From positions 2,752,001-2,816,000 of the forward strand of contig OZ001293.3 in assembly GCA_963921275.4 (NCBI GenBank): a stretch of 64,000 nt of DNA. Reading direction: 5' to 3'. Numbering within the stretch: the first letter of the stretch is position 1; each line of letters opens with the position of its first letter. This DNA comes from an uncultured Hormoscilla sp. (GTDB lineage Bacteria; Cyanobacteriota; Cyanobacteriia; Cyanobacteriales; Desertifilaceae). The notes beneath the pieces were generated by a model. The model saw nothing but the letters and a program-made list of their open reading frames with translations. It searched no databases and had not been told where the DNA came from. The translations under genes and the position numbers were made by a program. This document shows positions 10,286 to 40,233 of this stretch, one piece after another.

Positions 10286-11212
10286 GTGCGATTCGTTCCG
10301 GCATAAGCCAGTAGGTGAAAGTCGGGTCTGGCTCTATCAGCCAGATAACTCTGGTTATCATGGGGGTTAAATTCCCTTTCCCCAGGTACGGGGGTCGAGG
10401 GTACTACCGGTCGGAGGTGCTACGGAGCCACATCGCCGTGGTGCCTCCCGAGGACTTAAATGTAGGATAACTGGCAGCCTAAGCCGGTGACGCCGCTAGG
10501 AAAGATGCTAATGGTTAGAACAAGCGAACCTATGTAAACCTCGTTAACCAGAACCAGCGGAAGAAGGCTTATGCGCTTGCCCAAAAAGGGAAATGGTAGT
10601 TAGTATTAGCTCTTGCCTCTGGCTAATAACGTACTCAAAGAACTCCCGGGGTATAGTAGGAACCTAAAAGCATCGTGAAATGATACTAGGGAACGAAGTA
10701 ACCTCTCGTGAGCTGTCCCCATTTGGACAAGTTAGATGTAAAGCGCAAGCCACGAAGAAGAAGGATGTCCTAAGAAGCTAACGCCCAGGGTAATGCCTGT
10801 GGATATGCAGACGTAGGACGGATATGGTAAGACACCCTTGGGAAAAGTAACCTTAATGTCACAGAACTAGGGAGAAATTCCGAAAGTACGAATTTTGGAT
10901 TCAAATCTTAGCCAGGTAAAGTTCAGAGCCCTTACGAAAAGCGGAAAGCAGAATGGGGAAGATGTTAGTAAAGAGCGGCGAGTATGGTTTGCTGAACTAT
11001 CCTCCGCGAACCTTCCGCAGCTCAGTACTTAAACGGTCCAATAGGATTGACCATAAGGGGTAAAATTTCAAAGGGTAAGGGACAACGGGGGTAACCCCCA
11101 GTAATCCTACTGATGACAACAGCTTACCAACCAGTAGCCGTGTGCGGTTCCAGTCGCTCTTCAGGTTTCGCTCTTGGAGGGTTGGGGAGTGATTCCCAGC
11201 TCGACCCCGACC
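10286..11212 (+). mobile_element. ORF-less group II intron, copy A (927 nt)
   Basis: Starts GTGCGATTCG; DV-like TAGCCGTGTGCGG..GTCGC; DVI GGGTTGGGGAGTGATTCCCAGCTCGACCCCGACC; no ORF. Confidence 0.9.
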
Positions 11213-11275
11213 ATACTATACGGGTTTCTGGCGATCGCTCAAATTTTAATCTATTTCCTCCGGGTTGACTCCCAT

Positions 11276-12028
11276 TTATAGTAACCGCTGGGCTAATTTT
11301 TCCGCACGTTGGCGTTCGGAAAGGACCTGTTGTTCCAGTGTTTTGATTTGGCCTTGTTCTGCTTTTATTAATTGCTCCACTAGCGGAGGAGCGAGCAGTT
11401 CTTTCACCGATAAAACTAACTGCTCAAACTGACCAGAAACAATTGACATCTCTTCGGTGAAATCTACAAAACTATATCCTTCTTCATTACGAGGATTAGC
11501 AAACACCCGCACCCGTTTCTTTTTTGGGTCTACTACCCAATATTCGGGAATTTCTGCGATTTCGTATTCAGAACGTTTAATCACATAATCATCCCGGGCA
11601 TTACTACTGACAACTTCCACTACCAAAATCGGCTTTTCAGCAAAATCCAAAACTCCAGCACCAGGACGATGAATAACTTGTTCCCAAACTGTTTGGCTAC
11701 AGACTACCACATCGGGAATTCGCAATGAATTTTCTTCCGTTCGGACACCTGTCCCTAAAGAGTTCGCGACTAAATCTAAGTTTTGGTCAGCAAAGTAGCG
11801 CTGGAACTTATAAATCAGAAACTTGCAAATATTGGTATGTAAGTGCGTTGGTGCTGACATGGGTATTAGTTGCCCCCTGAATAATTCATAGAGAACGTCC
11901 GGTTCTCCTTCATATTCAAGATATTCTTGGAAGGTTAACAGATGTTCAATGCTTTGATGTTCAATTTCAGGAGGTTCACCCCGTGCCTGCCCAACCTCCT
12001 CTACCGCTGAAACGACTGCTTGAGTCAT
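11276..12028 (-). CDS. Uma2-family endonuclease (stop 10 codons earlier than its paralogue)
   Basis: RIPDVVV, EVVS, KRSEYE, IPEYWVVDP; TAA where the paralogue has GAA. Confidence 0.88.
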   Translation of the reverse strand: MTQAVVSAVEEVGQARGEPPEIEHQSIEHLLTFQEYLEYEGEPDVLYELFRGQLIPMSAPTHLHTNICKFLIYKFQRYFADQNLDLVANSLGTGVRTEENSLRIPDVVVCSQTVWEQVIHRPGAGVLDFAEKPILVVEVVSSNARDDYVIKRSEYEIAEIPEYWVVDPKKKRVRVFANPRNEEGYSFVDFTEEMSIVSGQFEQLVLSVKELLAPPLVEQLIKAEQGQIKTLEQQVLSERQRAEKLAQRLL

Positions 12029-12250
12029 AATGCTAGACCTCTGGTGCGATCGCGTTCTTTGAATATTTTATCTCATCTCAACTTTCTGTGCTAGTTGATT
12101 TTACTCATTCCCAGGTTCTACCTGGGAACGCACATCCTTCGAGGCTCTGCCTCCCGGGTGTGAGCCGCTATACTGGTAATCATGTCCAGCCAGAGACTGG
12201 AGGCTCCGCCTCTCAATATGCGTTCCCAGCCAGAGACTGGGAAGGAGGTA

Positions 12251-13177
12251 GTGCGATTCGTTCCGGCATAAGCCAGTAGGTGAAAGTCGGGTCTGGCTCT
12301 ATCAGCCAGATAACTCTGGTTATCATGGGGGTTAAATTCCCTTTCCCCAGGTACGGGGGTCGAGGGTACTACCGGTCGGAGGTGCTACGGAGCCACATCG
12401 CCGTGGTGCCTCCCGAGGACTTAAATGTAGGATAACTGGCAGCCTAAGCCGGTGACGCCGCTAGGAAAGATGCTAATGGTTAGAACAAGCGAACCTATGT
12501 AAACCTCGTTAACCAGAACCAGCGGAAGAAGGCTTATGCGCTTGCCCAAAAAGGGAAATGGTAGTTAGTATTAGCTCTTGCCTCTGGCTAATAACGTACT
12601 CAAAGAACTCCCGGGGTATAGTAGGAACCTAAAAGCATCGTGAAATGATACTAGGGAACGAAGTAACCTCTCGTGAGCTGTCCCCATTTGGACAAGTTAG
12701 ATGTAAAGCGCAAGCCACGAAGAAGAAGGATGTCCTAAGAAGCTAACGCCCAGGGTAATGCCTGTGGATATGCAGACGTAGGACGGATATGGTAAGACAC
12801 CCTTGGGAAAAGTAACCTTAATGTCACAGAACTAGGGAGAAATTCCGAAAGTACGAATTTTGGATTCAAATCTTAGCCAGGTAAAGTTCAGAGCCCTTAC
12901 GAAAAGCGGAAAGCAGAATGGGGAAGATGTTAGTAAAGAGCGGCGAGTATGGTTTGCTGAACTATCCTCCGCGAACCTTCCGCAGCTCAGTACTTAAACG
13001 GTCCAATAGGATTGACCATAAGCGGTAAAATTTCAAAGGGTAAGGGACAACGGGGGTAACCCCCAGTAATCCTACTGATGACAACAGCTTAACAACCAGT
13101 AGCCGTGTGCGGTTCCAGTCGCTCTTCAGGTTTCGCTCTTGGAGGGTTGGGGAGTGATTCCCAGCTCGACCCCGACC
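12251..13177 (+). mobile_element. ORF-less group II intron, copy B (927 nt)
   Basis: Only two differences from copy A spotted by eye. Confidence 0.9.
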
Positions 13178-13206
13178 AGTTTCGTCAAGAATGGCTCGCT
13201 CAAATT

Positions 13207-13968
13207 TTAATCAATTTCCTCCGGGTTGACTCCCATTTCTAGTAACCGCTGGGCTAATTTTTCCGCACGTTGGCGTAGGGTTTTGATTTGGTCTTGTTCT
13301 GCTTTTATTAATTGCTCCTCCGCTAGTGGAGCAAGCAGTTCTTTCACCGATAAAACCAACTGCTCAAACTGACCGGAAATAATTGATTGCTTTGCGGTGA
13401 AATCTACAAAGCTATATCCTTCTACCCTGCTAGGATTAGCAAACACCCGCACTCGTTTATTTTTGGGGTCTACTATCCAATATTCGGGAATTTCTGCGAT
13501 TTCGTATTCAGAACGTTTAATCACATAATCATCCCGGGCGTTACTACTGGTAACTTCCACTACCAAAATCGGCTTTTCAGCAAAGTCTAAAACTCCCGCA
13601 CCATCACGATGCAGAACTTGTGCCCAAACCGCTTGGCTACAGACTACCACATCTGGAATTCGGGATGAATTTTCTTCCGTGCGGACACCGGTCGCTAAGG
13701 AGTTCGCGACTAAATCCAAGTTTTGGTCAGCAAAATAGCGCTGGAGCTTATAAATCAGAAACTTGCAAATATTGGTATGTAAGTGCATTGCTGCTGACAT
13801 AGGTATTAGTTGCCCCCTGAATAATTCATAGAGAACGTCTGGTTCTCCTTCATATTCAAGATATTCTTGGAAGGTTAACAGATGTTCGACTGTTTGATCT
13901 TCAATTTCAGGAGGTTCACCCCGTGCCTGCCCAACTTCCTCTACCGCTGAAACAACTGCTTGAGTCAT
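13207..13968 (-). CDS. Uma2-family endonuclease
   Basis: Paralogue of 11276..12028; typical RAEKLAQRLLEMGVNPE tail. Confidence 0.9.
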   Translation of the reverse strand: MTQAVVSAVEEVGQARGEPPEIEDQTVEHLLTFQEYLEYEGEPDVLYELFRGQLIPMSAAMHLHTNICKFLIYKLQRYFADQNLDLVANSLATGVRTEENSSRIPDVVVCSQAVWAQVLHRDGAGVLDFAEKPILVVEVTSSNARDDYVIKRSEYEIAEIPEYWIVDPKNKRVRVFANPSRVEGYSFVDFTAKQSIISGQFEQLVLSVKELLAPLAEEQLIKAEQDQIKTLRQRAEKLAQRLLEMGVNPEEID

Positions 13969-14355
13969 AATGCTAAACCTCTGGTGCGATCGCGTTCTTT
14001 GACTATTTTATCTCATCTCAACTTTCTGTGCTGGTTGATTCGCCCCCGATGTTTATGCGGGCCCTAGGAATGTGCAGAACTTGACTTGCGCCGGTCAAAC
14101 CTATGACTCCGGCGGAGCTGCACGCGAAATCGCGCATCACCGAAGCTGTTCTGGATCGCGGCTCTGGGGCTGCCAGTCTTTCCCAGAGGCTCCAGATACT
14201 TTATTGCAAATATTTATTATTAAAAAATAAAATAATCATTAAATTTTGATTCCTCCTTACCAGGCTCTGCCTGGTAAGGAAAAACAGAGGCAGAGCCTCT
14301 TGTAGCTTGTAGCAACTGAGGCCAGATGTGAATTAAAATAAATTATCAGCTATAA

Positions 14356-16506
14356 TTGATAAATCTTATGAATAAGGGTAGAAAGACTCAGATGATCGCA
14401 AAAGTGCTGGCATTATGGAATGCTGTAACTAAGGCTAAATTCAGTTGGAGAAGTTACGTCCCTGTGTGGCTGAGCCTGATGGTAGGGATAGGACTGTCTA
14501 CAGTGGCCTCGGGAATAGTCTGGAAGTGGGAGTTAGCGAAAACCCAGCAGCAATTCGATCGGCGGGCAGATAATCTCGCCTTTGCTTTGCAGCAGAATAT
14601 AGACGAATATGTGCAACTCACCCAGGCTCTTGGGGCTTTTTACGATGCCGCCGATCGGGTCAGCAGAGCAGATTTTACCGAGTTCTCCCAACCCTTTTTG
14701 CCTCGCTATCCCGGGATCTTGGCCTTATGTTGGGCGCAGCGGGTTCTAGCTTCAGAACGATAAGCTTACGCCGAATCAATGGTCGCACAAGGATTTCGTC
14801 AATTCAACATCTGGGAGAGAAATGCCGATCGAAAAGCGATCGCGGCGAGTGAGCGTGCCGAATATCTTCCCAGTACCTATATCGAGTCACAAGAGCCGTT
14901 CAAACAGGCGATCTGCTTCGATCATAACTCGGTACCAAAGCGTCGGGTAGCCTTAGAGAAGGCGCGAGAAACTAGCGTGATGGTTTCTACACAGCAGGTT
15001 CCCTTAGAGCATAAGGTCGAATCAGGCTTTCTGATGTACCGACCCGTTTACCGACCCCCTTACCGTCAAGAGAGCGAGTTTTTTCAGGGAGTGGTTTACA
15101 TAGTTTACCAGATTGAAGGGTTAATCCGGGCATCAATTGGAGGATTGAACATCAAACACCTTGACTTTTACCTGTTTGACATGCCTGTCGATCAACTTGA
15201 ATCTGCCCTCAGCAAAGAATCAGTTAATGTAAATCAGGGCTTTCTGGTGTTTTACGACTCCAAACAGCGGCAGTTAGTAGAAGATCGGCAGCAGGCAGAA
15301 ATAGCCCAGCTAAATGCTTCGTCCGGGAGATCGCGCAAAAACTGTCTTGATAGTGATTGGACAGTCTGTATCCGCACCCTTAATGTCGCCGATCGAGAAT
15401 GGTCACTGTTAATTCTGCCGACATCGGACTTTGCTGAGAAACCTTGGACAGCAGTTGCGGCTCTAGCGATCGGGTTACTCTTGACTAGCATTCTCGCGCT
15501 ATACCTGGGGATGTCAATTAGACGGGGGACTCAAACCCAACAGTTACTCGCTTCTTTAGAAAAGACCAATGTGGCCTTACAGCAATCTGATACTGAGTTG
15601 AGGTCACAAAAAACGCAGCTAGAACAAGCCTTTCGTCAGCTGCAACAAACCCAAGCGCAACTGGTTCAGACAGAAAAAATGTCTAGCCTAGGCCAACTGG
15701 TAGCAGGAGTAGCTCACGAAATTAATAACCCCGTCAGCTTTATCTACGGTAATATTAGTTTTGCCCAGGAGTACACGCGCAAGTTGCTGGAGATGGTGAA
15801 GCTTTACGATCGGCATTGTCAAGATCACCATCCGTCGATTAAAGAGTTAGCAGAGGCGATCGATCTAGATTTTCTGCTACAAGACTTTCCCGATATGCTA
15901 TTTTCAATTCAAATCGGCGCTGAACGACTGCGAGAAATAGTTAATTCTCTGCGCAACTTCTCCCGCAAAGACGAAGCTGAGGTGAAAGCAGTTGATATTC
16001 ACGAGGGGATAGAAAGTACCCTGATGATCCTGCAAAATCGGCTGAAAGCAACAACGGGAGGCATCGCCCTAATTAAAGAATACGGCAACTTGCCCCCGAT
16101 CGAGTGCTATGCCGGACAGCTGAATCAGGTTTTTATGAACATTATCAGCAATGCGATCGATGCCCTGGAAGAGGTATTTTCAGGCAGATCCAGTTCCCGA
16201 GGGAAAGATTGGACTCCATCAGAAATCCCGACAATTCAGATTCGGACTGAAGTGGTAAAATCAGACCAGATCGCAATTAAAATTGCTGATAATGGACCAG
16301 GAATGCCCGATGAAGTGAAAGAAAAAATCCTCGACCCCTTCTTTACTACTAAACCTGTGGGCAAAGGTACAGGTTTGGGGTTGTCTATTAGCTACCAGAT
16401 CGTCACCGAAAAACATCAAGGTAGCTTGCAATGTATCTCAGCACCAGGTCAAGGAACCGAGTTTTTGATTCAAATTCCTGTCAGTCAAACTATAGAGAAA
16501 GTTTAG
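14356..16506 (+). pseudogene. CHASE-domain sensor histidine kinase with one in-frame stop at 14761-14763
   Basis: The two ORFs are in the same frame; TM-CHASE-TM, H-box AHEINNP, DNGPG, GTGLGL. Confidence 0.85.
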
Positions 16507-16680
16507 CAGAATACGGGCGGGAGATCGGGGACCCAGTTCCTCGTTCCCAGGGTCTCCCTGGGAATGAGTCGTCTGAGGCTCTGCCCCTTGTGAGTGAGTT
16601 AGCTAGTCCAGGAGGCAGAGCCTCAACCGGGCGTGACCAAGGGCGAGGGGTTTGTCTTATGAAGTGCATCATGGCAAGCA

Positions 16681-16719
16681 CAAAGAAACCCGGTTTTTCC
16701 GAAAAACCGGGTTTCTTTG
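16681..16719. terminator. Palindromic hairpin between convergent genes
   Basis: CAAAGAAACCCGGTTTTTCCGAAAAACCGGGTTTCTTTG. Confidence 0.55.
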
Positions 16720-16757
16720 TCATTGTGTGGGTTTATTGACAACAACGAAAGATGTGA

Positions 16758-18473
16758 TTAGAACTTAAACGTCGTCCGGATAGTGCCGACATAGATAGTG
16801 TCGTTATCCTCGTTGTGCTCTGGATTAAGAATCACATACAGGCCAGGGGTAATGGCAATATTGTCATTGAGCTGAATGCGATATAAACCCTGGATCTGAA
16901 GAGAAGTACCATCATCACCTCTGTTATCATCTCTCCTGGCCCCACTGACAACTTTCGGCAGCATCCCTACCTGGATCGCTCCCAGGTTACCTTCCGCGAA
17001 CAAATCTGGTAAAGCCAAGGTTCCTGCCCAGTTATAAATCGCAGAATGCCTATCATTATCGCCTTCTTCAATCACGTCTGCCCAACCGAACCAACCGGAA
17101 AGAATCAACCCACGACCCAAGCGAATTTGCGTTGTCGCTCCCATGACGTTAGCTGAGGTGTCCTCCCCAGTATAGGGGTTCGTAGCATTAGCACTACCTG
17201 TGCTACCAGTCAGGTTAGCTTGATCAGTCCAGTACGCCCGTGCATAGCTTAAACCCAGCTTGAAGGCATCACCGTTGAAAGTCAGCTGGCCCATTGCACT
17301 ATGGCTGCCATTGAACAGTCCCTCTCCATCTGAGGGGCTGCTGCTATTATCAGTCAGATAAGAGCCAGTGATCTTGAACCGTTCGCCCAAATTAACTTCA
17401 ACAGCGGCCCCTGCTCCCCCAGGTACCCGATAAATTGGGTTGAAGCGTCCAAAGCGCGAAAGAGAGCCGCTGTTACTGCTTTCTAAGGGGCTCAAGGACG
17501 GGTGAAAATCGTCCTGATCGTATCCTGCTGCGGCTAGCCAGAAAACCAGACTTTCGTTGGCCACTGGTAAACGGTAACCCAGTTTACTCAGTTCAAAAGT
17601 ACTTTCTGTGTCCGTTGCAAACCCGAGGCGACTCATCTCAGTACCAGTAACATCCTCCCCAAAATTATTGATGTTTCCGGCTTCCAAACGGGTTAGCAGG
17701 GAGCTTCCTCCTGTAAAAGTAGTCAGAAAATTGAGACGCGCCCGGGCTGACAAGGTCCAGATTTCATTAACCCCGTCATCGCCAAATACTCCACCAGTAT
17801 TGATAATGACCTCACCCCTCAGCTTAGAAGTAGTAGAGAACAGATTAGCCTCCAGTTCAGCAGTGCGGGCTTCCAGGGCATCTACGCGACCCCGCAGGGT
17901 AGCCAGTTCAGCAGCAAATTCTTCTTGCAGCCGTTGCAGGGTAGCTAAGTCGGCCCTGGTGATGGTGCTAGCTGTAGCCGCAGCAATCAGTTCGTTGATC
18001 CGGTCCAAACAAGCATTCAAACCAGCGGCAAACTCAAACCGAGTCAGGACCCGATTACCGCGATAGGTGCCATCGGGATAACCAGCGATACAACCATAGC
18101 GTTCTACCAGGGACTGCAAAGCTTGGAATGCCCAGTCTGTGGGGCGTACATCCCGCAGTTGAGACACGGAGGTGACCTGTTCCATCAGGTCACGGCCGGG
18201 ATTAGTTTCATTGCTGTAACGTTGAATTTGTTCCAGCGGCGTTACATCAGTCGGTGCTACTTCCGGGACTGCTTGTACCACTATGACTGGGGTGACAATT
18301 GCTTCAATCGTTGGATCGGTCTGGGTGGGGGCAGCTATTGACTGCGCTGCTGCTTCTGTCGGATTCCCCTCCTCACCGGCTGCTGCTTGAGCCTGATTAG
18401 AAGAGAAGACTAAAGTCGCTCCTAATAATGCTGGGGTGACCAACAGTGAATTCCACAGAACCTTATTGTTCAT
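16758..18473 (-). CDS. SLH-domain cyanobacterial porin (iron-uptake porin family)
   Basis: Signal peptide, QVTSVSQLRDV.PTDWAFQAL SLH, coiled coil, C-terminal RTTFKF. Confidence 0.93.
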   Translation of the reverse strand: MNNKVLWNSLLVTPALLGATLVFSSNQAQAAAGEEGNPTEAAAQSIAAPTQTDPTIEAIVTPVIVVQAVPEVAPTDVTPLEQIQRYSNETNPGRDLMEQVTSVSQLRDVRPTDWAFQALQSLVERYGCIAGYPDGTYRGNRVLTRFEFAAGLNACLDRINELIAAATASTITRADLATLQRLQEEFAAELATLRGRVDALEARTAELEANLFSTTSKLRGEVIINTGGVFGDDGVNEIWTLSARARLNFLTTFTGGSSLLTRLEAGNINNFGEDVTGTEMSRLGFATDTESTFELSKLGYRLPVANESLVFWLAAAGYDQDDFHPSLSPLESSNSGSLSRFGRFNPIYRVPGGAGAAVEVNLGERFKITGSYLTDNSSSPSDGEGLFNGSHSAMGQLTFNGDAFKLGLSYARAYWTDQANLTGSTGSANATNPYTGEDTSANVMGATTQIRLGRGLILSGWFGWADVIEEGDNDRHSAIYNWAGTLALPDLFAEGNLGAIQVGMLPKVVSGARRDDNRGDDGTSLQIQGLYRIQLNDNIAITPGLYVILNPEHNEDNDTIYVGTIRTTFKF

Positions 18474-19691
18474 TTATCTCTCCTCACACCTGGGATACCT
18501 TGACTTTAAGGCTAAACGAGAACTAACTAACAGAGATTATATCTCAAGGAAAAGATTTTGGGTAATGGAAAATTGGGCAGTTACCAGTAGGGTGGGCATT
18601 GCCCACCAGGTGCCAGTAGGGTGGGCAATTCCTAGGCTGTTTATTTTGGGTCTTTTTAGGACCCGATCGAGCACTCCGGATCCTACGATGGCGCTCACGC
18701 CTATAATTCATATATAGCAAGCGATCCAGGGTCTCATCACCTTACACAAAAAGTGCATGAAGTTTTTTCCACTGGCCTAGAACAAAGTGAACAGCCTAGG
18801 CAATGCCCACCAGGTGCCAGTAGGGCACCATCCATTGCTAGCCCTGTAAAGTTGTAGGATAACAAATTTTCTTGGCAGTTGACAATGAGTATTTTTAATA
18901 GATTGGATAAGTTGAGCAATATGGAGCTTTCATTGGGTCTGATGAATGCGATCGCCTACCAGTGAACAGTTATCACGTACCAGGCCCACCACGGATCAGT
19001 GAACAGTTATCACGTACCAGGCCCACCACGTATCAGTGAACAGTTATCAGTGAACAATTACCAGTGGTCGGGTATTGCTAATCCTGAAAGCTGTAGGATA
19101 ACGATCGAGTGCCAGTTACCAGGGACGTTTTGGACGTGCGGTTCCCCTCCCTTTCGCAAGGGGAAGGGGGGACATCGTACTCGCACTACCCAGGAGACAT
19201 CGTAACCGCACTACCCAGGCCGTGTCTCCTGGGAGCTTGATGTCCCCCGGACGCACTTCGATGCCTTCGGGATGCTTCGCAAAAACCCCTCAGGCATCGT
19301 CGAAACCCGGGGGACATCATAATCGCACTACCCAGGAGACACGGCGGAGACACCGCCCGTTCCTTAAAGCTAAACGACAGAGCTACCGGCTGACGCTCAC
19401 CTATAGGTGTCATGACCCCCCTCGCCCTAACGTAGGTCAATACCATGACCTGCATCTTGCATCTTCCCGATAGCGCTGCGCTGGGGGCGCAGCCATAGGA
19501 GATAATTCCAACCGAGGCCGGAAATTACCGGATTTTATGCAAGAGTTAGTAGTGACAGTTATAGCAGTTGCTCTTATTAGTGTGATCTGCAGAAAATCGC
19601 TGAAACACTTATGCTGTCTGCATTTGGTCGTACCACATAAATTTGAGAAACGCCATACCAATCGACCGATCGCCAATCGACAATTATCATA

Positions 19692-20744
19692 TCACTTCCA
19701 GCCAGCCCGGTCCATAATTTTCAGGGCTGCTGCATTGTTTTTCCCGAATACGTCGGGGTTGAGGGGGTCGGCTTTGAACTCGCCATAGCTAGCGAGGACT
19801 GGGTCTATGGACACGCCAGTCACTACAGGATATTCGTTGTTGCCCTCAGCGAAGAATTCTTGAGCCTGACGACTGACCAGATGCTCCAAAAATGCGATCG
19901 CGGCTTCTTTATTGGGAGCATTTTTGATGACGCCGCCGCCGCTGACGTTAACATGGGTGCCGCGACCGTTAGGACCAGTTTGGTTGGGGAAGAATACCCC
20001 GATCTTATCTATCACTTCCTTGTCTGCCAGTTTATTTGATTTGGCCAGACGGGCGACGTAGTAGGAGTTGGCGATCGCGATATCACCGACTCCTGCGGCA
20101 CAAGCTCTAATTTGGGCCGTATCATTGCCTTCGGGCTCACCGGCGAAGTTAGCGACCATACCCCGGGCCCATGCCTCTGTCAGGTCTGGGCCATGGGCTG
20201 CCAGCAGGGAGCCCACCAGGGACTGATTATAGATATTGCTGGAACTGCGGATGAGGATTTTGCTTCGCCATTTAGGATTCATGAGATCCTCATAGGTGGA
20301 CAGTTCCCAGGGCTTAACTCTGTCTTTACGGTACAGGATCACTCGCGCCCGCCGAGAGAAAGCATACCAAGTGCCGTCCGGGTCGCGCAGATCGGCATGG
20401 ATCAGGGAGTTCAGATTTGGTGAATAGATAGGTTGGAGGATCCCTGATTCCTTGGCCCGCCAGAGACGGCCCCCATCAACGGTCAGTAAGATGTCAGCTT
20501 GACTATTGCGACCCTCGCTTTTGACCCGTTCGATCAATTGGTCAGCTTTACCTTCCACCAGATTTACCTTGATACCGGTCTCTCTGGTAAAGCTGTTGTA
20601 CAACTCATCATCAGTATTGTAATGGCGAGAGGAGTAGAGGTTGAGGGGGCGGTTCTGGGCTATTGTTGGGGCCAAGCGAGGCAATTGTCCTGCGGCCACT
20701 GCTGCTGCTGCCGTACCCGCAGCCATAAAAACTCGTCTTTTCAT
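19692..20744 (-). CDS. futA: Fe3+ ABC transporter substrate-binding protein
   Basis: Tat-like [23 protein letters not shown] motifs. Confidence 0.93.
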
Positions 20745-29864: not shown

Positions 29865-30091
29865 AGGGTATCGCTACATCAACTAAGTCCGCCTGCGCGG
29901 ACTGGGTTTTTTCTCCTCCCATACCCCCTCGCGCCGCGATACCCTAAAGGGTATCACTACATCAACTAAGTCCGCCTGCGCGGACTGGGTTTTTTCTCCT
30001 CCCATACCCCCTCGCGCCGCGATACCCTAAAGGGTATCACTACATCAACTAAGTCCGCCTGCGCGGACTGGGTTTTTTCTCCCCCCCCCCT
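29848..30091. repeat. 3 x 83-bp tandem repeat, two hairpins per unit
   Basis: Units start at 29848, 29931, 30014. Confidence 0.95.
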
Positions 30092-31423: not shown

Positions 31424-31733
31424 CTTAGTTCCTACCCAGGTTTTTGGCTCGCGATTTCTCACAATAATTTGCAGCACTCAGGCTCTGACGCTATGCTGAC
31501 TGCCTAGACGCAACATTTCCGGCTCTCATAACTCTGGTTCTCTTCTCTATTATAGCTTTAAGAAAGCGAAGCCCTTGCCTTTGTTCCTATAATTTTTAGC
31601 TGCTTTTAATAACTTCCTCTCCTCATGGGAGCCTTAACATTAATTTACATAATTCGCTATCGAGACGAAGAAGCCACAAACAACACCCAAATATCGAGGA
31701 CATCGCCAGTGGTTACGGGCCCCTGGGCTGGGG

Positions 31734-32336
31734 TTGAATCTGGTTACCAGCATCATGCTACTGGGAAATGCGATCGCCCTTTTGCAAGCTGCCCATGGAC
31801 CGGTAGATGCCTATCTCGTGCTTGGAGGTAGCATTCGTCGGGAAATATACGTAGCCTCCCTAGCCAAACAACAGCCTGACATTCCGATCTTAATTTCCCA
31901 AGGCTCCTCAGACCCCTGCATAGTCCTCATTTTTCAGCGAGATGGCGCACCCATGTCAGGAGTTTGGCTGGAAAAATGCGCCCGATCGACCTTTGACAAC
32001 TTCTACTTTAGTCTAGCAATTTTACAGCAATGGGGGGTACGCAAGGTGCAGGTAATTACCTCCCCCACCCATCTCCCTCGGGCGAAATGGCTAGGTCAAA
32101 TCATCCTTGGCGCTCGCGGCATGTGGGTGGATACTTATACTGTAAAGGAAAAAGGCATTCCTGGCAATCGCGAGTCATGGCTCAAGACCAGTCTTGATGT
32201 CACTCGCGCTTTAGTCTGGGCTGTCCTTAGTCAATTTTACCAGCCGAGTTGCTCGGAACTGTTGCCCCTTACCCAGGTTAACATGAATTATTGGCAACAG
32301 CAAGGTTTTCATTGCGAACATCAAGGTGGTTTGTGA
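31734..32336 (+). CDS. YdcF/DUF218-family protein
   Basis: LVLGG, STFDN, ITSPTHLPRA; start uncertain. Confidence 0.75.
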   Translation: MNLVTSIMLLGNAIALLQAAHGPVDAYLVLGGSIRREIYVASLAKQQPDIPILISQGSSDPCIVLIFQRDGAPMSGVWLEKCARSTFDNFYFSLAILQQWGVRKVQVITSPTHLPRAKWLGQIILGARGMWVDTYTVKEKGIPGNRESWLKTSLDVTRALVWAVLSQFYQPSCSELLPLTQVNMNYWQQQGFHCEHQGGL

Positions 32337-32480
32337 ATTGTGAATTACTAATGGCTAATTGTTAATTGCGAACCGGGGCACGGCTGGGGTACAATTATTT
32401 TCGTTTATCCCGTTCATCTCCTGATGCCGTGCCCCTACCAGATTTTGCTAATTGATAATTCACAATTCACCATTTAAAAT

Positions 32481-34802
32481 TCACAATTCTCCATTCACTA
32501 ATTGTGCTTTAATTGTGGAGATGCTTACTTTACAGAAATACTGGCGGCGAAATTGTTCTTCTTCGACAGCAGCTAAAAAGTTTTTGAGGGCAACTGATGA
32601 TTTGATCGCTTCTTCAACGGGATGCCAGGCGATCTGCAAACTGGCGGCGTCTAGAGGAATAATAGTAAAACCCAGATCCTTGAGGGCTTCCAGTCCCAAA
32701 TTGACCGCAGCAGACACTAGTCCCAGCTTTGCTTGCAGTTGTTGGCGGTTGGCGGTTTTACCCGTGCGACTCAGGTATTTCGCAATGCCTAGCAGTTGTT
32801 GCCAGACCTCCTGGGGCGCGATCGCCTGTGGTTCCGGGTAGGCGATCGCCACTGGTTGTTGCCGTTCTCGGGCCGCTCGCAAGTACAAGTTTAAATCATC
32901 CCAGCTTGACGGACATTCTGTCAATATAATTAGGGATTGATTCTCTTGGCTTATATTATCTTTCCCCCCCCGCCAGTCTAATATCGACATCTGCGGAATC
33001 TTCATTCTCGATTCCGTGCTGGGGCGCACTGCCATCAGCCGCACTTCATAATGTTTATGATAAGGATTGTAATCTAATTCCACGATCGCATCGCATCGCC
33101 TTGAGGGAATCTCCTCCTTATAGTGACCCCACCAGACTCCATTAAAGCTTCTTTCTGTAGAATCATCTCCTATTCTAAATTCGGTCTTGATGTAGCGGAC
33201 TTTCTTTCCTTTAAAATCTATAATATTTTTATTCCAGGGATTGGCAAACCAGCAGTTTTCAATCAACAGCTTGGGGACGGGGTTTCCCATACCACAAGGT
33301 TCTAGCAGTTTCAGTTGGCGAAACAAATCTTTTCCTAATTCTGCTACTGTCACCACTAGGTCAGCCGGCCATGTTGGTGTTGCTTTCACTGCTGTATCCA
33401 TACTCCGCAATTGCTGATTTATTGCTTCGGTAAATAGGGGGATATTCTCAACTGGTAAACTCAGACCCGCAGCGAAGGGATGACCCCCAAATCTATCTAA
33501 TAGCTGTGCTTGGGATTTTACCAGTTGGTAAAGGTCAATTCCGGCGACAGATCGGGCAGAACCTCTGGCTATAGATTGATTTTCATTGACTTCGGTACTG
33601 AGTAAAATAATGGGGCGATCGCAGATTTGGGCGACTTCAGCAGCTACTAAACCGAGAACCCCTACATGCCATTGAGGGTCGTCAAGCACTATAATCTCAG
33701 TCGTAGATAAATCTAACTGGGATAGTTTTTCTGGGACATCTGCGGCGACATCTTTCTGCAAAGCTTTGCGACGAGTATTAGCCAATTCTGCCGCTTCTGC
33801 TAATTCCAGGCAGCGGTTGAGATCGCGACTGGTGAGTAATTCAACGCAAAAGGAAGCGTCGCCGTGAATGCGACTGACAGCGTTGATGCGCGGACCCAGT
33901 CCAAAAGAAATATCTGTGGGGCGATCGCCATTTCTCTGGCATAGTTCCAGCATTCGCCCCACCCCAGGACGCCTGCGAGACTGGGGTGCTTTCTGAAAAT
34001 CTGCTTGCAATTGTTTAATCCCCACCTGCGCCAAATAACGGCAATCTCCACTTAACTGCACTAAATCGGAAATTAGACCGATCGCCACTAAATCCAATAA
34101 ATCTTCTAGGGGCTGTTGCGGCACATCTGGCATTGCTCGATAGAGGGCTTCTATTAGTTTATAAGCAACTGCCACCCCCGAAAGGTGAAACAACGGATGT
34201 TCTGCGGGCAGATAGCGGGGGTTAATAATCGCCGTTACCGGAGGACGTTCGGCCAGCAGCACGTGGTGATCTGTGATAATCAGATCTATTCCCATCTGTC
34301 TAGTATACTCTATTTCTGCTAAGTTGGTGCTGCCCGTATCGCAGGTAACAATTAGTTTAGTGCCCTCGTGGGCGATCGCCTCTATTCCCTGGCAGTTTAA
34401 GCCGTGGGATTCTGTGAGGCGATCGGGAATATAGTATGATAGTCGATCGCGGGGGAAAAACTGCCCCAACCCATCCCAAAGCACGGCAGTGGAGGTGACT
34501 CCATCGGCGTCAAAATCTCCCCAAATGGTCACAATTTCCCCAGCAACCCTAGCTTGCTGCAATCTTTTTACCGCCCAGTCCATTTCGGCACCGAACTCCC
34601 AGGGACTCGCTGGTTGATACAGATTCGGATCTAAAAATCCTGCTAGCTTTTCCAGGTCTTGGATCCCCCGACTCCATAGCAGTTGGGCCGCCTGATCGAC
34701 CTTGGGGAGGTTGGGTGCGTGGCCTTGCACCGCTTGCACGAACCAGTCAGGAGGGTTTGATGATGAAATTAACCACGGGATATTTTTATTTTGATCGGAC
34801 AT
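32481..34802 (-). CDS. recJ: Single-stranded DNA exonuclease RecJ
   Basis: GDFDADG, TCDTG, TDHH, GSARS, FGGHPFAAG. Confidence 0.93.
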   Translation of the reverse strand: MSDQNKNIPWLISSSNPPDWFVQAVQGHAPNLPKVDQAAQLLWSRGIQDLEKLAGFLDPNLYQPASPWEFGAEMDWAVKRLQQARVAGEIVTIWGDFDADGVTSTAVLWDGLGQFFPRDRLSYYIPDRLTESHGLNCQGIEAIAHEGTKLIVTCDTGSTNLAEIEYTRQMGIDLIITDHHVLLAERPPVTAIINPRYLPAEHPLFHLSGVAVAYKLIEALYRAMPDVPQQPLEDLLDLVAIGLISDLVQLSGDCRYLAQVGIKQLQADFQKAPQSRRRPGVGRMLELCQRNGDRPTDISFGLGPRINAVSRIHGDASFCVELLTSRDLNRCLELAEAAELANTRRKALQKDVAADVPEKLSQLDLSTTEIIVLDDPQWHVGVLGLVAAEVAQICDRPIILLSTEVNENQSIARGSARSVAGIDLYQLVKSQAQLLDRFGGHPFAAGLSLPVENIPLFTEAINQQLRSMDTAVKATPTWPADLVVTVAELGKDLFRQLKLLEPCGMGNPVPKLLIENCWFANPWNKNIIDFKGKKVRYIKTEFRIGDDSTERSFNGVWWGHYKEEIPSRRCDAIVELDYNPYHKHYEVRLMAVRPSTESRMKIPQMSILDWRGGKDNISQENQSLIILTECPSSWDDLNLYLRAARERQQPVAIAYPEPQAIAPQEVWQQLLGIAKYLSRTGKTANRQQLQAKLGLVSAAVNLGLEALKDLGFTIIPLDAASLQIAWHPVEEAIKSSVALKNFLAAVEEEQFRRQYFCKVSISTIKAQLVNGEL

Positions 34803-35001
34803 TTCTAGTATAACTCAACTGTATATTTATGCTAGCATAGGAAGGTGATGTAGCTGACGATCTTTTTTATGGTGACGAGCTGACTGTATTGGCGATCGCA
34901 CCCTGAGTGAATTAAGAAACCCGGTTTCTGGGTTCCAGCCCGTGACACTGCATCAAGATTAGGATATGATATATAGAGTTCAGGGAGGTAACATACCCCA
35001 T

Positions 35002-35193
35002 ATGGCAGAAACAACTGTAAAATATAGAGTCCTGAAGGCGATGGAGTCGATGCCGCAATCTGTTACATTTGACGATGTGATGGATCGGGTTTCCTTCCTG
35101 TACAAAGTTGACCGAGGGCTCAAACAAGTTGAAGCTAGCGATACTATATCCCATGAAGAAGCTAAAAAGCAAATTAAGACATGGCACGGATAA
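35002..35193 (+). CDS. Small orphan antitoxin-like protein
   Basis: KVDRGLKQVE...ISHEEAKK pattern; overlapping ATGGCACGG start of a missing partner. Confidence 0.5.
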   Translation: MAETTVKYRVLKAMESMPQSVTFDDVMDRVSFLYKVDRGLKQVEASDTISHEEAKKQIKTWHG

Positions 35194-35332
35194 AGCTGTA
35201 TGTACTCTTTTGCCCAGAAACCAGGTTTTTACTCCAGATATTTTGCTCGGACATTTCTAGTATAACTGAACTGTATCTTTATGCTAGCATATAAAAGTGA
35301 GCACGCGAACAAGAATTTATCGGAATCGTTCC

Positions 35333-36118
35333 ATGACGGAAAATATTGAATATCGTTACCTAGCAGCTTGCGCGATTGCCCGGGAGGCAGGCAAGCTTGC
35401 CCTAAGCTATTTCCAAGATGTCAGCCAATTGACGGTTGAAGTCAAGAAAGTACAGGATCTGGCTAGCATTGCCGATCGGGAAGTAGAAGAGTCGATCGTC
35501 ACTAGGCTAGCAGCAAGTTTCCCCTTCGATGGATTTTTGGCAGAGGAGCGGGGCGGTGCTGTGTCCCCCGACAGCGCTTTCTGGGTAATTGACCCGATCG
35601 ACGGTACTTCTAATTTTATCCGGGGCATCCCTTTCTTTTGCGTGGCGATCGCCTATATGCTAGCAGGGGAGATTGAAATTGGCATCATCTACGACCCGGT
35701 GGCGGACGAACTCTTCGCAGCACGTCGGGGTTTAGGTGCCACCCGCAACGGCAAGACAATTCAGGTGACTGACTGTAATGATATTACCAAAGCTATGGTG
35801 ACTTTTGATTTTAATTATCGTACTACTATAGAGCGTTTCCTTGCCAGTACCGAGCAATTGCTCTCAGCACAGTGCGATACCCGTCGCCTCGGATCCGGGG
35901 CCCTCGCGATCGCGCATGTAACCGACGGTCGCAGCGACGCCTATTGGAACTTCCACCATTATCCTTGGGACGCGATCGCTAGCCTAGTGATCGCGCGGGA
36001 AGCTGGGGGTTGGACCAGTAATTTTCTAGCTGGGGAGGGGCTAACTAAGGGCAATGAAGTCCTCGTTTGCACCCCAGGGATTAAAGATGTTATGATTGCT
36101 GCTACTGGCATTAGTTAA
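35333..36118 (+). CDS. Inositol monophosphatase family protein
   Basis: WVIDPIDGTSNF, WDAIA motifs. Confidence 0.92.
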   Translation: MTENIEYRYLAACAIAREAGKLALSYFQDVSQLTVEVKKVQDLASIADREVEESIVTRLAASFPFDGFLAEERGGAVSPDSAFWVIDPIDGTSNFIRGIPFFCVAIAYMLAGEIEIGIIYDPVADELFAARRGLGATRNGKTIQVTDCNDITKAMVTFDFNYRTTIERFLASTEQLLSAQCDTRRLGSGALAIAHVTDGRSDAYWNFHHYPWDAIASLVIAREAGGWTSNFLAGEGLTKGNEVLVCTPGIKDVMIAATGIS

Positions 36119-36134
36119 AATCTCTTGACCTCCC

Positions 36135-36329
36135 ATGTTTGAGCTGACATTCACCGCCAGCGCACTCGACGATCTGCACTACTTCAAGAAGTCAGAGCAG
36201 AACCTCGTTCTCGATAGCGTAGAACAGCAACTGATTCGGGAACCATTGACGGTGACACGAAACAGAAAATACCTCCGATCGAGATTACTTAGTGCAAGGA
36301 AACTACAAATTGAAGTATTTGAGATATGA
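36135..36329 (+). pseudogene. Truncated RelE/ParE-like toxin
   Basis: FTASALDDL N-terminus; similarity ends at the 36292 repeat. Confidence 0.55.
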
Positions 36330-36553
36330 TTGGTCCCTGAATAAGCAGTAAATTATTCCTCATTCCCAGGCAGGTTCGTAGTTCGTAGGGGTGCAGTGAT
36401 TTGCAAAAATTTTAAAGTTGTAGGTTGGCGGTATGAAACCCAACCAATACTGCCCGCCGCCATTGCTGCACCAGTTTTTCAACACAAACAGGTAACATTA
36501 AAATCTGAGTTGTGCTATAATGAAATAAGTTGTTAAGATCGTACCCGAGGACC

Positions 36554-36870
36554 ATGAGTAATAACCAGAGTAGCAATGACAGACTCGATCGCATCGAGGC
36601 AGCATTGGAAAATTTGATGAGTGTAGTCGCCGACCTCCAGAAAGAATAGCAATGCAGCAACAATGTATAGAAATGCAGCAACAATGTATAGAAATGCAGC
36701 AAGAACGTTTGGAAATGCAGCAAGAACATCTGCAATTAGTGCGAATTGTTTCCCAGCAGCAAAGTCACATTGTGGGAATGCAAGCTGAAATCAAAGGACT
36801 GCAAACAGAAAGCAATCGTATTCAAGAATATCTGTTTGGTCAGCAACAACAAAATAATCAAGATGATTAA
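36554..36870 (+). pseudogene. Small coiled-coil protein, broken near 36648
   Basis: DRLDRIE start, 21-nt internal repeats, continuation in another frame. Confidence 0.55.
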
Positions 36871-37232
36871 TTATTCATTGCGATCTAGTAAGGTGGACAA
36901 TGCCCACCCTACAGAGAATCTAACTGGTAGTGATCGCGATCGGGCAGTATTAAATTTTATCAGTCAGTACCTGGATGAAGTTGACTGAGAGTATCTCGTG
37001 CAAAGAAACTACAAATTGAAGTATTTGAGATATGATTGGTCCCTGAATAAGCAGTAAATTATCCCTCATTTTCAGGCAGGTTCTATCGTTCCCTGGCTCC
37101 GTCTGGGAACGCACAGCTGAGGCTCTGCCTCCGGTCTCTCATGCTCTCGTTCACTGGAGGCAGAGCCTCAAAACGTCCGTTCCCAGCCATAGACTGGGAA
37201 CGAGTATACAAAGGATCTAACGAGAGAATGGT

Positions 37233-37943
37233 TCATTCACTCCAGGACTGAAGATAATCCAAAGCCGCTTCGATGCTCTCAAATTTATGATGCAAAATTT
37301 CTCCCTGTTGCCGGAAAATATCCACCACTACACCGACCACTGGGTTTAATTCCACGTCAGCGATCGCATTTTCCACCATAGTTTGTAATTGTATTGCTAC
37401 AGGTTCGAGAATTTGTTTCCCTAGTTTTATACGTTGTTGTTCGCTCAAATTTTGATAAGTTTCGAGGGCGGATACTGCATAATTAGCCGCCTCGCGGTCC
37501 GGCCACAAAATCTCAATGCCATAATTGCGAAAAACGGAAACGATATGTGCTTGTGGGACAAACAAAAGATTAGCACCACTCGATTCAACCATTCGCAAAG
37601 GTTCTGGCGTAAAATCACCTGCTAACACTACAATAGAAGCACGCAGAGTTGGATGCGATCGTTTTAGATCGGGATGTTCTCGGACAGGCTTTGAGGCTTT
37701 TTCGGTGGCATGTTTCGCTTTCTGGATAATTTTGCTTTCAATAATAGCGTAAGGTTTTTCCTGGCTATCTACGATTAAGCCATCATGTTGGCAAAGTTTA
37801 CCATTAAAATCGGCCAGTTTTCCTTTGGGAATAAAATTAAAGTCGGTTCCGTACAAACAAGCTTGCACAACCAGATGAATTTCATCTTCTAGAAGTTTAC
37901 CCAGCTTTTGTCCGAAAGCCCGACCGGCACCACTTGGGTTCAT
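37233..37943 (-). CDS. Putative PD-(D/E)XK restriction endonuclease
   Basis: HDG...IIESK motif; directly downstream of the MTase. Confidence 0.6.
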   Translation of the reverse strand: MNPSGAGRAFGQKLGKLLEDEIHLVVQACLYGTDFNFIPKGKLADFNGKLCQHDGLIVDSQEKPYAIIESKIIQKAKHATEKASKPVREHPDLKRSHPTLRASIVVLAGDFTPEPLRMVESSGANLLFVPQAHIVSVFRNYGIEILWPDREAANYAVSALETYQNLSEQQRIKLGKQILEPVAIQLQTMVENAIADVELNPVVGVVVDIFRQQGEILHHKFESIEAALDYLQSWSE

Positions 37944-37984
37944 CGCGTTTCCTCTGTTATCTGGATCTAAATTTTGACATCATA

Positions 37985-39283
37985 TTACCCCTCCACCCAG
38001 AGGCGTCCTTCATGCAGGGGAACCGAATGCTTGCGGTTGCGCCATTTATTATTGCGATCGCGCGTCTTCTGAAACCGAAAAGACCGAAAACCCGCCGCCA
38101 AAGCCAGTTGTCCCAGCCACCGGTCCACGGGCAGGTAAACCCCATAAGGTGCAGAGTCACCCACCATAAAGCAGATCCGGCAAGGACTGGCGGTGACCCG
38201 CCGCAGGGCATGCCAAACCTTGGCTAAATCGCTAAAATAAGCGACCACCATCAGATGATAAGGCTTCTTTCCCCCGTGGTGCCCCCTTTCTGCCGCCAAC
38301 TGTTCGCAAATTGGCACAATTTCATCGAGTAACGGCGCGAGATTAGGGTCAGCTAGAAACAATTCTAACTGTTCTCGATCGGCTGCCACATGCTGAGTAC
38401 AAGACCGAATCAAATATTTTCTGACGGTTTGCTGAAGGTCTTTCCAACGCTCTACTTCCCCCCAAAACGTCATTTCCAGACGGGTGGCATCTGCATAATC
38501 ATAATTATTGGTATAAGGGGGCGAAGTGAGGACTAAATTCGCCCAACCATTGGGGATAGACTGACAAACTCTGGCATCTTCAAGATATTGCCGTGCAGTT
38601 ACACTTGTTTGTGCCTGAGTTTGCCGCATATCTGCGACCATATTCTGAATTTGTTTTTCATAAGCAGTCAAAGGCGTTAAGGATTTGGCTTTTCTTTTAT
38701 TGGGAAGCACGTATTGCCATGGGGCGGTTCCCACTGGCGAACAGATCCGCAGAATTGCCGTAATTGCTAACCAGTGCAGTTCGGATATTGGACTGGCGTC
38801 AGCAAGATGCTGCCACCCTTGCTTCAAAGCATCCAATTCCACCAAGACTTCTGTGGGATAACACTTTTGAATTAGAGACGGATAGTTAGATGTAGATCCG
38901 GGGAACTGTTTGGCAAGAACCTGTATTTCTTGCGCTGTTTCCATAAATTGCGGCACGGACTCCGAGTAAGCCAGCTTGGCCCGCGCAATTCTGGCCACAA
39001 ACGGGTGTGCTTCTACTCCCAAGGTGGCAACTCCACAGCCTTCCCCGGCAATTAAAGTAGTGCCTGCACCGGCGAAGGGATCGAGTAACTTCACCTCACC
39101 TTGTTGCAAGGCCATTTTAATTTCTTGTTCGACCCATTGTGCTGAGAAACCCGCTGAGTAGCGAAACCATCTGTGAACTGGTAAACTCATATTATCTACA
39201 AAGGAAGAACTCCGCTCGTGGATAGCTGGAGAAGACTGTTCTGGCACCAGGTCTGGGAACAGCGATAATTGTTGACCTTGCAT
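37985..39283 (-). CDS. Amino-DNA methyltransferase, probably m4C
   Basis: DPFAGAGTT followed by TSPPY. Confidence 0.9.
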   Translation of the reverse strand: MQGQQLSLFPDLVPEQSSPAIHERSSSFVDNMSLPVHRWFRYSAGFSAQWVEQEIKMALQQGEVKLLDPFAGAGTTLIAGEGCGVATLGVEAHPFVARIARAKLAYSESVPQFMETAQEIQVLAKQFPGSTSNYPSLIQKCYPTEVLVELDALKQGWQHLADASPISELHWLAITAILRICSPVGTAPWQYVLPNKRKAKSLTPLTAYEKQIQNMVADMRQTQAQTSVTARQYLEDARVCQSIPNGWANLVLTSPPYTNNYDYADATRLEMTFWGEVERWKDLQQTVRKYLIRSCTQHVAADREQLELFLADPNLAPLLDEIVPICEQLAAERGHHGGKKPYHLMVVAYFSDLAKVWHALRRVTASPCRICFMVGDSAPYGVYLPVDRWLGQLALAAGFRSFRFQKTRDRNNKWRNRKHSVPLHEGRLWVEG

Positions 39284-39306
39284 TTATACGATCCTCTTTA
39301 GATGTT

Positions 39307-40233
39307 GGTCGGGATCGAGCTGGGAATCACTCCCCAACCCTCCAAGAGCGAAACCTGAAGAGCGACTGGAACCGCACACGGCTACTGGTTGGTAAGCTGT
39401 TGTCATCAGTAGGATTACTGGGGGTTACCCCCGTTGTCCCTTACCCTTTGAAATTTTACCCCTTATGGTCAATCCTATTGGACCGTTTAAGTACTGAGCT
39501 GCGGAAGGTTCGCGGAGGATAGTTCAGCAAACCATACTCGCCGCTCTTTACTAACATCTTCCCCATTCTGCTTTCCGCTTTTCGTAAGGGCTCTGAACTT
39601 TACCTGGCTAAGATTTGAATCCAAAATTCGTACTTTCGGAATTTCTCCCTAGTTCTGTGACATTAAGGTTACTTTTCCCAAGGGTGTCTTACCATATCCG
39701 TCCTACGTCTGCATATCCACAGGCATTACCCTGGGCGTTAGCTTCTTAGGACATCCTTCTTCTTCGTGGCTTGCGCTTTACATCTAACTTGTCCAAATGG
39801 GGACAGCTCACGAGAGGTTACTTCGTTCCCTAGTATCATTTCACGATGCTTTTAGGTTCCTACTATACCCCGGGAGTTCTTTGAGTACGTTATTAGCCAG
39901 AGGCAAGAGCTAATACTAACTACCATTTCCCTTTTTGGGCAAGCGCATAAGCCTTCTTCCGCTGGTTCTGGTTAACGAGGTTTACATAGGTTCGCTTGTT
40001 CTAACCATTAGCATCTTTCCTAGCGGCGTCACCGGCTTAGGCTGCCAGTTATCCTACATTTAAGTCCTCGGGAGGCACCACGGCGATGTGGCTCCGTAGC
40101 ACCTCCGACCGGTAGTACCCTCGACCCCCGTACCTGGGGAAAGGGAATTTAACCCCCATGATAACCAGAGTTATCTGGCTGATAGAGCCAGACCCGACTT
40201 TCACCTACTGGCTTATGCCGGAACGAATCGCAC
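39307..40233 (-). mobile_element. ORF-less group II intron, copy C (927 nt)
   Basis: Reverse complement of copy A; one difference spotted, in DVI. Confidence 0.9.

Follow-up and report, generated by a model that had tools for sequence, protein, structure and literature searches.

A 64,000-nt stretch of the genome of an uncultured Hormoscilla sp. (the window; C1:2752001-2816000 of host genome G000) carries three near-identical copies of a 927-nt element, here called copies A, B, and C (Table 1). We consider it likely that they belong to a family of IIB-like group II introns that lack an open reading frame (ORF), that are moved by RNA-based retromobility with a reverse transcriptase (RT) provided in trans, and whose odd domain V (DV) is functional in the cell. 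The observed basis for this is exact, duplication-free insertion at motif sites, recent spread, a fold under selection, the lack of an ORF, and the presence of many intact RT genes. We infer the RNA intermediate, the use of a helper RT, and the splicing of the 927-nt intron. A first-pass annotation of the window had proposed a recently spread, non-autonomous group II lineage. That proposal is borne out by homology, by a covarying fold, by the pairing of exon-binding site 1 (EBS1) with intron-binding site 1 (IBS1), by exact insertion, and by the absence of an ORF.

Copies and insertion sites

When aligned with 50-nt flanks, the three copies are each 927 nt long, and their identity runs from GTGCG to ...CCCCGACC. 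Copy B has two private substitutions (intron positions 773 and 842) and copy C has one (position 920); pairwise, the copies differ at two (A/B), one (A/C), and three (B/C) sites. The coordinates, the length, and the one to three differences are as given in the first-pass annotation. No ORF longer than 51 amino acids is found inside the three copies, in keeping with the earlier view that they encode no protein. Copy A, domain IV included, also has no RT remnant (best E = 6; blastx against 10 intron RTs, all full-length and from this genome). We therefore class the 927-nt intron as ORF-less and non-autonomous.

A megablast search of the genome with copy A returned 33 matches at 90% identity or more, of which 16 are full-length. 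Six of these 16 are 100% identical to A (A itself and five other genomic copies), six are 99.68 to 99.89% identical, one is 98.7% identical, and three are 96.44% identical. Twelve of the 16 are therefore at least 99.68% identical to A. The earlier count of three copies holds for the window, but not for the genome, which has 16 full-length copies at 96.4% identity or more. For 11 of the 16, the 30-nt flanks occur nowhere else in the genome. Of the other five, four are located in one repeated host element and one lies antisense inside another intron. A single truncated copy occupies the same spot of the repeated host element as the four full copies. The three 96.4% copies occur solely in this element and may have been copied along with it. 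Among 31 genomes searched, copies with at least 96% identity are confined to the host genome. The best match elsewhere is 84%, and relatives of the intron in genomes of the same genus do not exceed this value.

Copies A and B lie in the two units of a tandem duplication. Between these units, identity is 84.9% over the 156 nt upstream of the intron, 99.8% inside the intron, and 89.8% over the 866 nt downstream. The earlier statement that all three copies have different flanks is correct for C, whose flanks show no relation to those of A or B, but not for A versus B, whose flanks are 85-90% identical. Because the flanks are far more diverged than the introns, the duplication of the Uma2 gene and its upstream repeat predates the introns. 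This leaves either the invasion of both paralogous targets or the conversion of one intron by the other. The A/B target (...CCCAGCCAGAGACTG...) is carried by a short dispersed repeat (10135-10285 and 12100-12250), which has dozens of partial matches in each of four sister genomes. The upstream flank of the copy at C1:5268738 resembles the same repeat.

Empty sites show that insertion is exact. The repeated host element is present in five filled and seven empty copies, and the difference between the two forms is exactly 927 nt. The empty form reads ...GACTGGTCTGAGGTA|GAGATAGC..., and in the filled form GTGCG...CGACC stands between the two halves, with no target duplication. For the copy nested in another intron, there are eight empty paralogous sites. 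All 16 copies begin with GTGCG exactly at the empty-site boundary, in agreement with the GUGCG start noted at first pass and with the group II pattern GUGYG. A Response_reg-SpoIIE gene is interrupted in phase 0 by one copy (C1:841823-842749), and its two parts cover SpoIIE profile positions 3-65 and 68-190. The exons of this gene are contiguous in two sister genomes: G002, whose flanks are 98.5-99% identical, and G001, at about 90%. In sister genome G004, the A target is directly followed by a B-like 3' flank, which represents an empty A/B site. The search for empty sites in related strains that the first-pass annotation had suggested thus yields exact insertion relative to all three of these genomes. 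No clean empty site for copy C was found in the sister genomes: G001 and G002 have no match, and G004 is not collinear.

The targets have a recognizable motif, for which a logo was built from 13 unique flanks. In 13 of the 16 copies, the intron is directly followed by A. At the SpoIIE-gene site, the 5' exon (C1:842750-842755) reads GAGGTA in the host genome versus GGGGTG at the empty sites of two sister species, and both G-to-A changes convert G.U into A-U pairs with EBS1. Two filled host-repeat copies have A in place of G at +1. These exon changes at filled sites could have arisen by selection for splicing or by co-conversion from a donor exon, or could mean that a variant target was chosen.

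Several sites have features of their own. At the 3' junction of the nested copy (C1:5193466-5193496), the sequence is ATTAAACCCCGACC ATTAAACCCCC..., versus a single ATTAAACCCCC at empty sites; this amounts to a 14-nt insert in which the start of the exon is linked to the four final letters of the intron. A candidate second split gene is found at C1:6586604, where the upstream piece has ADH_N profile positions 1-53 and the in-frame, 293-amino-acid downstream piece has no Pfam match. In G004, the 5' flank of copy C matches until 5 nt before the intron, and unrelated sequence then follows after the Unstab_antitox ORF. Since the 3' flank of copy C (39284-39306; 5' side, 40234-40250) is not collinear with G004, there may have been a rearrangement at or through the intron. 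Contigs from four sequencing runs break at the repeat at copy C; they display no junction across this intron, and none spans that stretch. Two loose contig ends resemble, by eye, the flanks of host-repeat copies and of copy C1:310702.

Group II fold and exon recognition

Over its whole length, copy A shares 80% identity with an 871-nt element on the minus strand of the window (Table 1), which splits an RT ORF. This element had been recognized as a diverged relative at first pass, and its position and kinship stand. Its 3' end has a 44.4-bit match to the Rfam model Intron_gpII (49583-49659, minus strand), and the relative has only a sub-threshold match to group-II-D1D4-2 (22 bits, where 36 are needed). 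The Infernal check of DV and domain VI (DVI) that the first-pass annotation had called for was positive for the relative and negative for the three copies themselves.

To place the copies among their relatives, full-length ORF-less introns of 750-1090 nt were picked by their 5' motif, DVI tail motif, and spacing, which gave a set of 338 that was clustered at 94% identity. RNAalifold, applied to representatives of 26 families, gave a consensus with 216 pairs; double compensatory changes are seen in 108 of these, and 94.2% of cells are paired. The counts by domain are 113 (domain I), 33 (domains II-III), 37 (domain IV), 14 (DV), and 13 (DVI). The lack of a group II fold, which the first-pass annotation had held up as evidence against an intron, is contradicted by this covariation-supported, six-domain consensus.

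The EBS1 loop and the hexamer upstream of the intron change together in six other multi-copy families (cl1, cl2, cl6, cl9, cl14, and cl16). The probable EBS2 of the 927-nt intron lies in an unpaired stretch (intron column 260-267), which provides 6-nt IBS2 matches in families cl1, cl2, cl7, cl9, and cl14. Within DVI, A919 (window 11204) is a candidate branch point, as it is predicted to be unpaired in the consensus and lies 8 nt from the 3' end. Other endings, namely ATCC, GACT, and TAAT, are found in sister families. On sequence grounds, the anatomy appears to be that of an IIB-like group II intron with separate EBS1 and EBS2.

Three other EBS2 candidates were rejected. CCGGUC (intron 122-127) is the sole computed 6-nt match, but the 871-nt family conserves this segment and yet has a different target. 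AAUGGUU (intron 225-231) is conserved across families whose targets differ. The third, CCAGUC in the DV loop (11149-11155, intron 864-870), derives from the altered DV loop and is shared by A, B, and C; it is fully complementary to the GACUGG that lies upstream of most insertion sites. We treat this match as coincidence because the 96.4% subfamily (loop AAAA) lacks CCAGUC and uses the same target. The UCCA loop is also seen in other lineages with canonical stems.

The non-canonical domain V

Canonical relatives have a DV of the form AGCCGGAU-GCGGU-GAAA-AUCGC-AA-GUCCGGUU, or the covarying AGCCGUGU...AU-GCACGGUU. The 927-nt family has the 5' strand AGCCGUGU together with the 3' strand UC-UUCAGGUU and the loop UCCA. 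The AGC triad helix (4 bp) is retained, and the four middle pairs become G.A, U.C, G.U, and U.U. It is because of this non-canonical DV that the Rfam DV-DVI models miss the copies. Rfam scans were run at the gathering threshold on the whole window, and by E-value on 10100-13400 (3.3 kb) and 11090-11230 (141 nt). Matches to msr (19.7 bits), GHRLOS, and MIR6459 in the region of the copies were dismissed as chance-level.

This odd DV marks whole families. The odd 3' strand occurs 47 times in the host genome (0 for a reversed-pattern control), and once each in two of four sister genomes searched, apparently at one orthologous fragment. Among the 338 ORF-less introns, DV is canonical in 286, of the odd3 type in 33, of the odd5 type in 16, and untypable in 3. 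All 15 copies of the 927-nt family within this census are odd3. The same is true of all six copies of another family (943 nt, 99.8% identical), which occupy six unique sites and have a GAAA loop. When genomes were scanned for the odd DV pattern, 11 loci were found, comprising two Hormoscilla records of metagenome-assembled genomes and nine unrelated bacteria, against a chance expectation that we estimate at about 4.

The odd5 type is the other lesion of the same DV helix (AGCC-CCA-GCGGUGAAAGUCGCAAGUCCGGUU), and 13 of its 16 introns are in family cl3 (about 934 nt). One cl3 copy (C1:4184504-4185438, plus strand) splits a chromate transporter gene in phase 0, and the Chromate_transp profile continues in the downstream exon (positions 37-166).

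We find that the fold was maintained after DV had changed. The main group and the 96.4% subfamily, both odd3, differ at 33 sites, of which 18 are unpaired. Where the differences fall in pairs, 11 pairs are kept, 2 are gained, and none is broken. In two of the 11 kept pairs, both in the DVI apical helix, both sides have changed. This pattern would be hard to obtain without selection on the fold, and argues that the RNAs kept working after the change in DV. Since two near-identical families with an odd DV fill many unique sites, we take the odd DV to remain functional in the cell, probably with support from tertiary contacts and the maturase.

Intron load and possible helper enzymes

The 338 full-length ORF-less introns of the host genome (7.0 Mb) fall into dozens of families. 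The largest have 139 (871 nt), 73 (835 nt), 19 (about 934 nt), and 15 (927 nt) members, and many are small. Profile searches of chromosome C1 put the number of intron 3' ends at about 413 and that of 5' ends at 472. The Rfam DV model matched all 150 candidates that were scored, out of 867. The host genome may be the most intron-laden bacterial genome described.

Potential sources of an RT are abundant. The host genome has 23 RT ORFs of at least 540 amino acids and 75 matches to the maturase domain (GIIM), and RT fragments within the window carry RVT_N, RVT_1, GIIM, and HNH. A search of the host genome by ribozyme similarity found no close match to the 927-nt intron among RT-bearing introns. 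The closest RT-bearing ribozyme belongs to a 609-amino-acid RT class and has an identical DV 5' strand and the tail CCCCTAAT, with an identity of 72-76% over aligned parts only. Because of this distance, no specific helper RT is singled out. Many apparent ribozyme matches upstream of RT genes proved to be other ORF-less copies lying nearby.

Proposed mechanism and alternative explanations

According to our favored explanation, the intron RNA would be excised from a transcript, and its EBS2 and EBS1 would base-pair with the DNA target CTGG(T)-N3-4-GAGGYA|A. Insertion would occur by reverse splicing into the DNA target, and the inserted intron would then be copied into DNA by an RT/maturase that the intron does not encode. 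As the 927-nt intron encodes no such enzyme, the enzyme would have to act in trans, from an ORF-bearing intron of the same genome. The RT would thus be borrowed from the ORF-bearing introns.

A number of observations weigh against this explanation. The copies have no Rfam match to Intron_gpII (RF00029) or to the D1-D4 models, even at E values up to 10 on the 141-nt segment. The segment of DV and DVI fails to adopt the corresponding fold (z = +0.39, versus -3.95 in a canonical relative), and the DV hairpin alone reaches about -6.5 kcal/mol, versus -13.9 to -17.0 for canonical ones. Two of the broken pairs, 856-877 and 857-876, are those that covary (GC/UA and AU/GC) in canonical sister families. 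Since the lost pairs covary there, the middle DV helix normally matters. The EBS2 of the 927-nt family is, by our own reading, a match of only 4-5 nt. The 3' end, whose boundary is fixed by empty sites, is ACC (...CGACC), not AY. The distance to the closest RT-bearing ribozyme is a further point on this side.

The DV anomalies could also mean that the odd DV is catalytically dead in cis, with a working DV, or the whole core, being lent in trans by the RNAs of canonical introns. The 927-nt introns would then be doubly dependent, both for the RT and for the ribozyme core. We regard this as unlikely. In its favor, of the five pairs that separate the catalytic triad helix from the bulge, four have disappeared, as has the GNRA loop, and the DV segment fails to fold as DV. 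Introns with the other lesion of this helix (AGCC-CCA-GCGG) have multiplied too (16 of 338, including 13 in a single family), and the 286 ORF-less introns with a canonical DV are possible donors. DV can act in trans in vitro. However, trans complementation would have to be efficient enough for a dozen recent insertions. Compensatory changes have kept the rest of the fold, including the adjacent DVI, which fits an intact cis ribozyme equally well. In addition, the odd 3' strand is old, since two sister species share it at one orthologous fragment. A wider form of this idea, which we consider quite improbable, is that families with a broken DV middle (two lesions, 49 of 338) multiply because their neighbors supply both the catalytic hairpin and the RT in trans. 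If true, this arrangement would represent a naturally occurring halfway stage from the self-contained group II intron to a split system whose trans-acting, DV-like RNA serves many introns, like U6 in the spliceosome.

Alternatively, immobile relics could have been multiplied at the DNA level, through segmental duplication, gene conversion between repeats, or transposition of a host element. Copies A and B do lie within a tandem duplication, four full copies and one truncated copy share one host element, and the 96.4% copies are found only there. This alternative is nonetheless largely refuted, and we give it very little probability: 11 of the 16 copies have unique 30-nt flanks, the A/B flanks are 10-15% diverged versus 0.2% for the introns, unrelated sites share CTGG...GAGGYA complementary to intron loops, and insertion is exact relative to empty sites in two sister species. 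It is also highly improbable that the family is a domesticated ORF-less ribozyme with a cellular job, either a HYER-like RNA-guided hydrolytic nuclease or a regulatory intron. Such a role would account for a fold under selection without an ORF, and some copies are indeed sense-oriented inside or between genes. It would not account for near-identical copies at unrelated, often intergenic or antisense sites, or for the mobile-element behavior of a family limited to one species among those searched. Finally, a non-intron mobile element that merely starts with GTGCG, such as a miniature inverted-repeat transposable element or a non-autonomous element of the IS200/IS605 type, would explain the lack of an Rfam group II match and, for the IS200/IS605 type, the preferred sequence just upstream of the insertion. 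This possibility is refuted, with virtually no probability left to it, by the 80% full-length identity to an intron with canonical DV and DVI, by the covariation-supported group II fold, and by a target complementary to internal loops that covary across families. Furthermore, there is no target duplication, and no terminal inverted repeat was seen on reading the aligned ends.

Relation to known group II introns

Trans-mobilized group II introns that lack an ORF are already known in cyanobacteria, and the kind is not new. Thermosynechococcus elongatus has 28 introns (17 ORF-less and 8 with ORFs) that are 85-100% mutually identical, with families set by their EBS sequences (Mohr, Ghanem, and Lambowitz 2010, PMC2882425). 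As in our family, the TeI3 introns of this cyanobacterium include closely related ORF-less copies and families that differ in EBS and targets. They also include twintrons in RT ORFs, and ORF-bearing relatives in the same genome are able to supply the protein (PMC2882425). By contrast, full-length ORF-less introns number 338 in the host genome studied here, and the RT-bearing ribozyme nearest to the 927-nt intron shares only 72-76% identity with it. DV mispairings in T. elongatus were noted only for single copies, which are likely impaired (PMC2882425), whereas here a mispaired DV marks whole multiplying families.

The ORF-less dnaN introns of Trichodesmium erythraeum are spliced with the maturase of the RIR intron (PMC12584367). 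Like the 927-nt introns, they are cyanobacterial, and they depend on the protein of a related, ORF-carrying intron, as we propose for the 927-nt introns, but they are few and located in a housekeeping gene. The 927-nt family, on the other hand, is dispersed, lies mostly in intergenic regions and accessory genes, and has been recently mobile. A review describes introns without an ORF as rare among bacteria (Zimmerly and Semper 2015, PMC4424553). The degenerate ORF-less group II introns of organelles also lack an ORF and have a ribozyme that departs from consensus, but they are immobile, splicing-only, and reliant on host factors (PMC4424553), whereas the 927-nt family has made recent insertions.

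In a survey of 1,790 representative bacterial genomes, the maximum was 101 group II introns, in Arthrospira platensis (Miura et al. 2022, PMC8919778). This is likewise a filamentous cyanobacterium with an explosive rise of CL-type introns, but the host genome here has severalfold more, at about 413 3' ends and 472 5' ends. That survey used the Rfam DV/DVI model (PMC8919778), which misses the 927-nt family. Among the papers searched, we found none that joins Hormoscilla with group II introns, or Hormoscilla with both a genome and introns.

Two aspects are noteworthy. One is the scale of ORF-less introns, compared with the published maximum that we found of 101 introns per genome (PMC8919778). 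The other is a DV that is invisible to the standard model in the 927-nt family, the 943-nt family, and scattered copies, even though these are recent, exactly inserted, and under structural constraint elsewhere in the fold. One possibility is that the most highly conserved part of the ribozyme is far more tolerant in vivo than previously believed; the other is that these introns borrow their catalysis along with their protein. Both alternatives bear on the origin of intron-rich genomes and of split splicing machineries, and on the number of bacterial introns that DV-based surveys overlook.

Features of the window

Coordinates of the copies, their parts, and their surroundings are collected in Table 1.

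Table 1. Features of the window that relate to the 927-nt intron (positions are those of the window).
Feature	Position	Strand	Description
Copy A	10286-11212	+	Intergenic, antisense to minus-strand Uma2 gene, 64 nt past its stop
Copy A target (5' exon)	10270-10285	+	GACTGCCAACGAGGTA; IBS2-like CTG(G/C) and IBS1 GAGGTA; same 16 nt at the G004 empty site
Probable EBS2	10547-10551 (intron 262-266)	+	ACCAG, unpaired stretch, complementary to the targets' CTGGT
EBS1	10614-10619 (intron 329-334)	+	UGCCUC in a 9-nt hairpin loop (intron 326-334), complementary to IBS1 GAGGYA
Non-canonical domain V	11136-11167 (intron 851-882)	+	AGCC/GGUU base and upper 5-bp helix kept; loop UCCA, not GNRA
Domain VI and 3' tail	11173-11212	+	Apical helix with GUGA loop; G918/A919 unpaired
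Copy B	12251-13177	+	2 differences from A; in second unit of diverged tandem duplication
Tandem duplication	10130-14040 (units 10130-12100 and 12094-14040, aligned with each other)	.	Per unit: short dispersed repeat with target, one intron, one Uma2 gene
Uma2 genes of the two units	11276-12028; 13207-13968	-	
Copy C	39307-40233	-	1 difference from A; sense, between Unstab_antitox ORF (40299-40568, -) and methylase-like ORF (37985-39283, -)
Diverged relative	49581-50451	-	871-nt ORF-less intron, canonical DV, 139-copy family, nested in the outer intron's RT ORF (twintron)

The 871-nt relative splits its host RT ORF such that RVT_1 profile positions 1-70 are on one side and 73-205 on the other. 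The twintron as a whole (48334-51000, minus strand) consists of this inner intron and an RT-bearing outer intron, whose pieces carry RVT_N and RVT_1, then RVT_1, GIIM, and HNH. The DV of the outer intron is weak (28.8 bits) and abuts the start of an E1 dehydrogenase ORF (47253-48356, minus strand). The window-wide Rfam scan returned only two Intron_gpII matches, that of the 871-nt relative and a further DV at 47107-47184 on the plus strand (45.8 bits).

Outside the window, a tandem array on C4 (from about position 4009 onward, minus strand), made of units of about 64 nt that start with GTTCGATTCGTTTTCTCGG..., gave 149 false matches to the fuzzy intron 5' motif. This array is not an intron.

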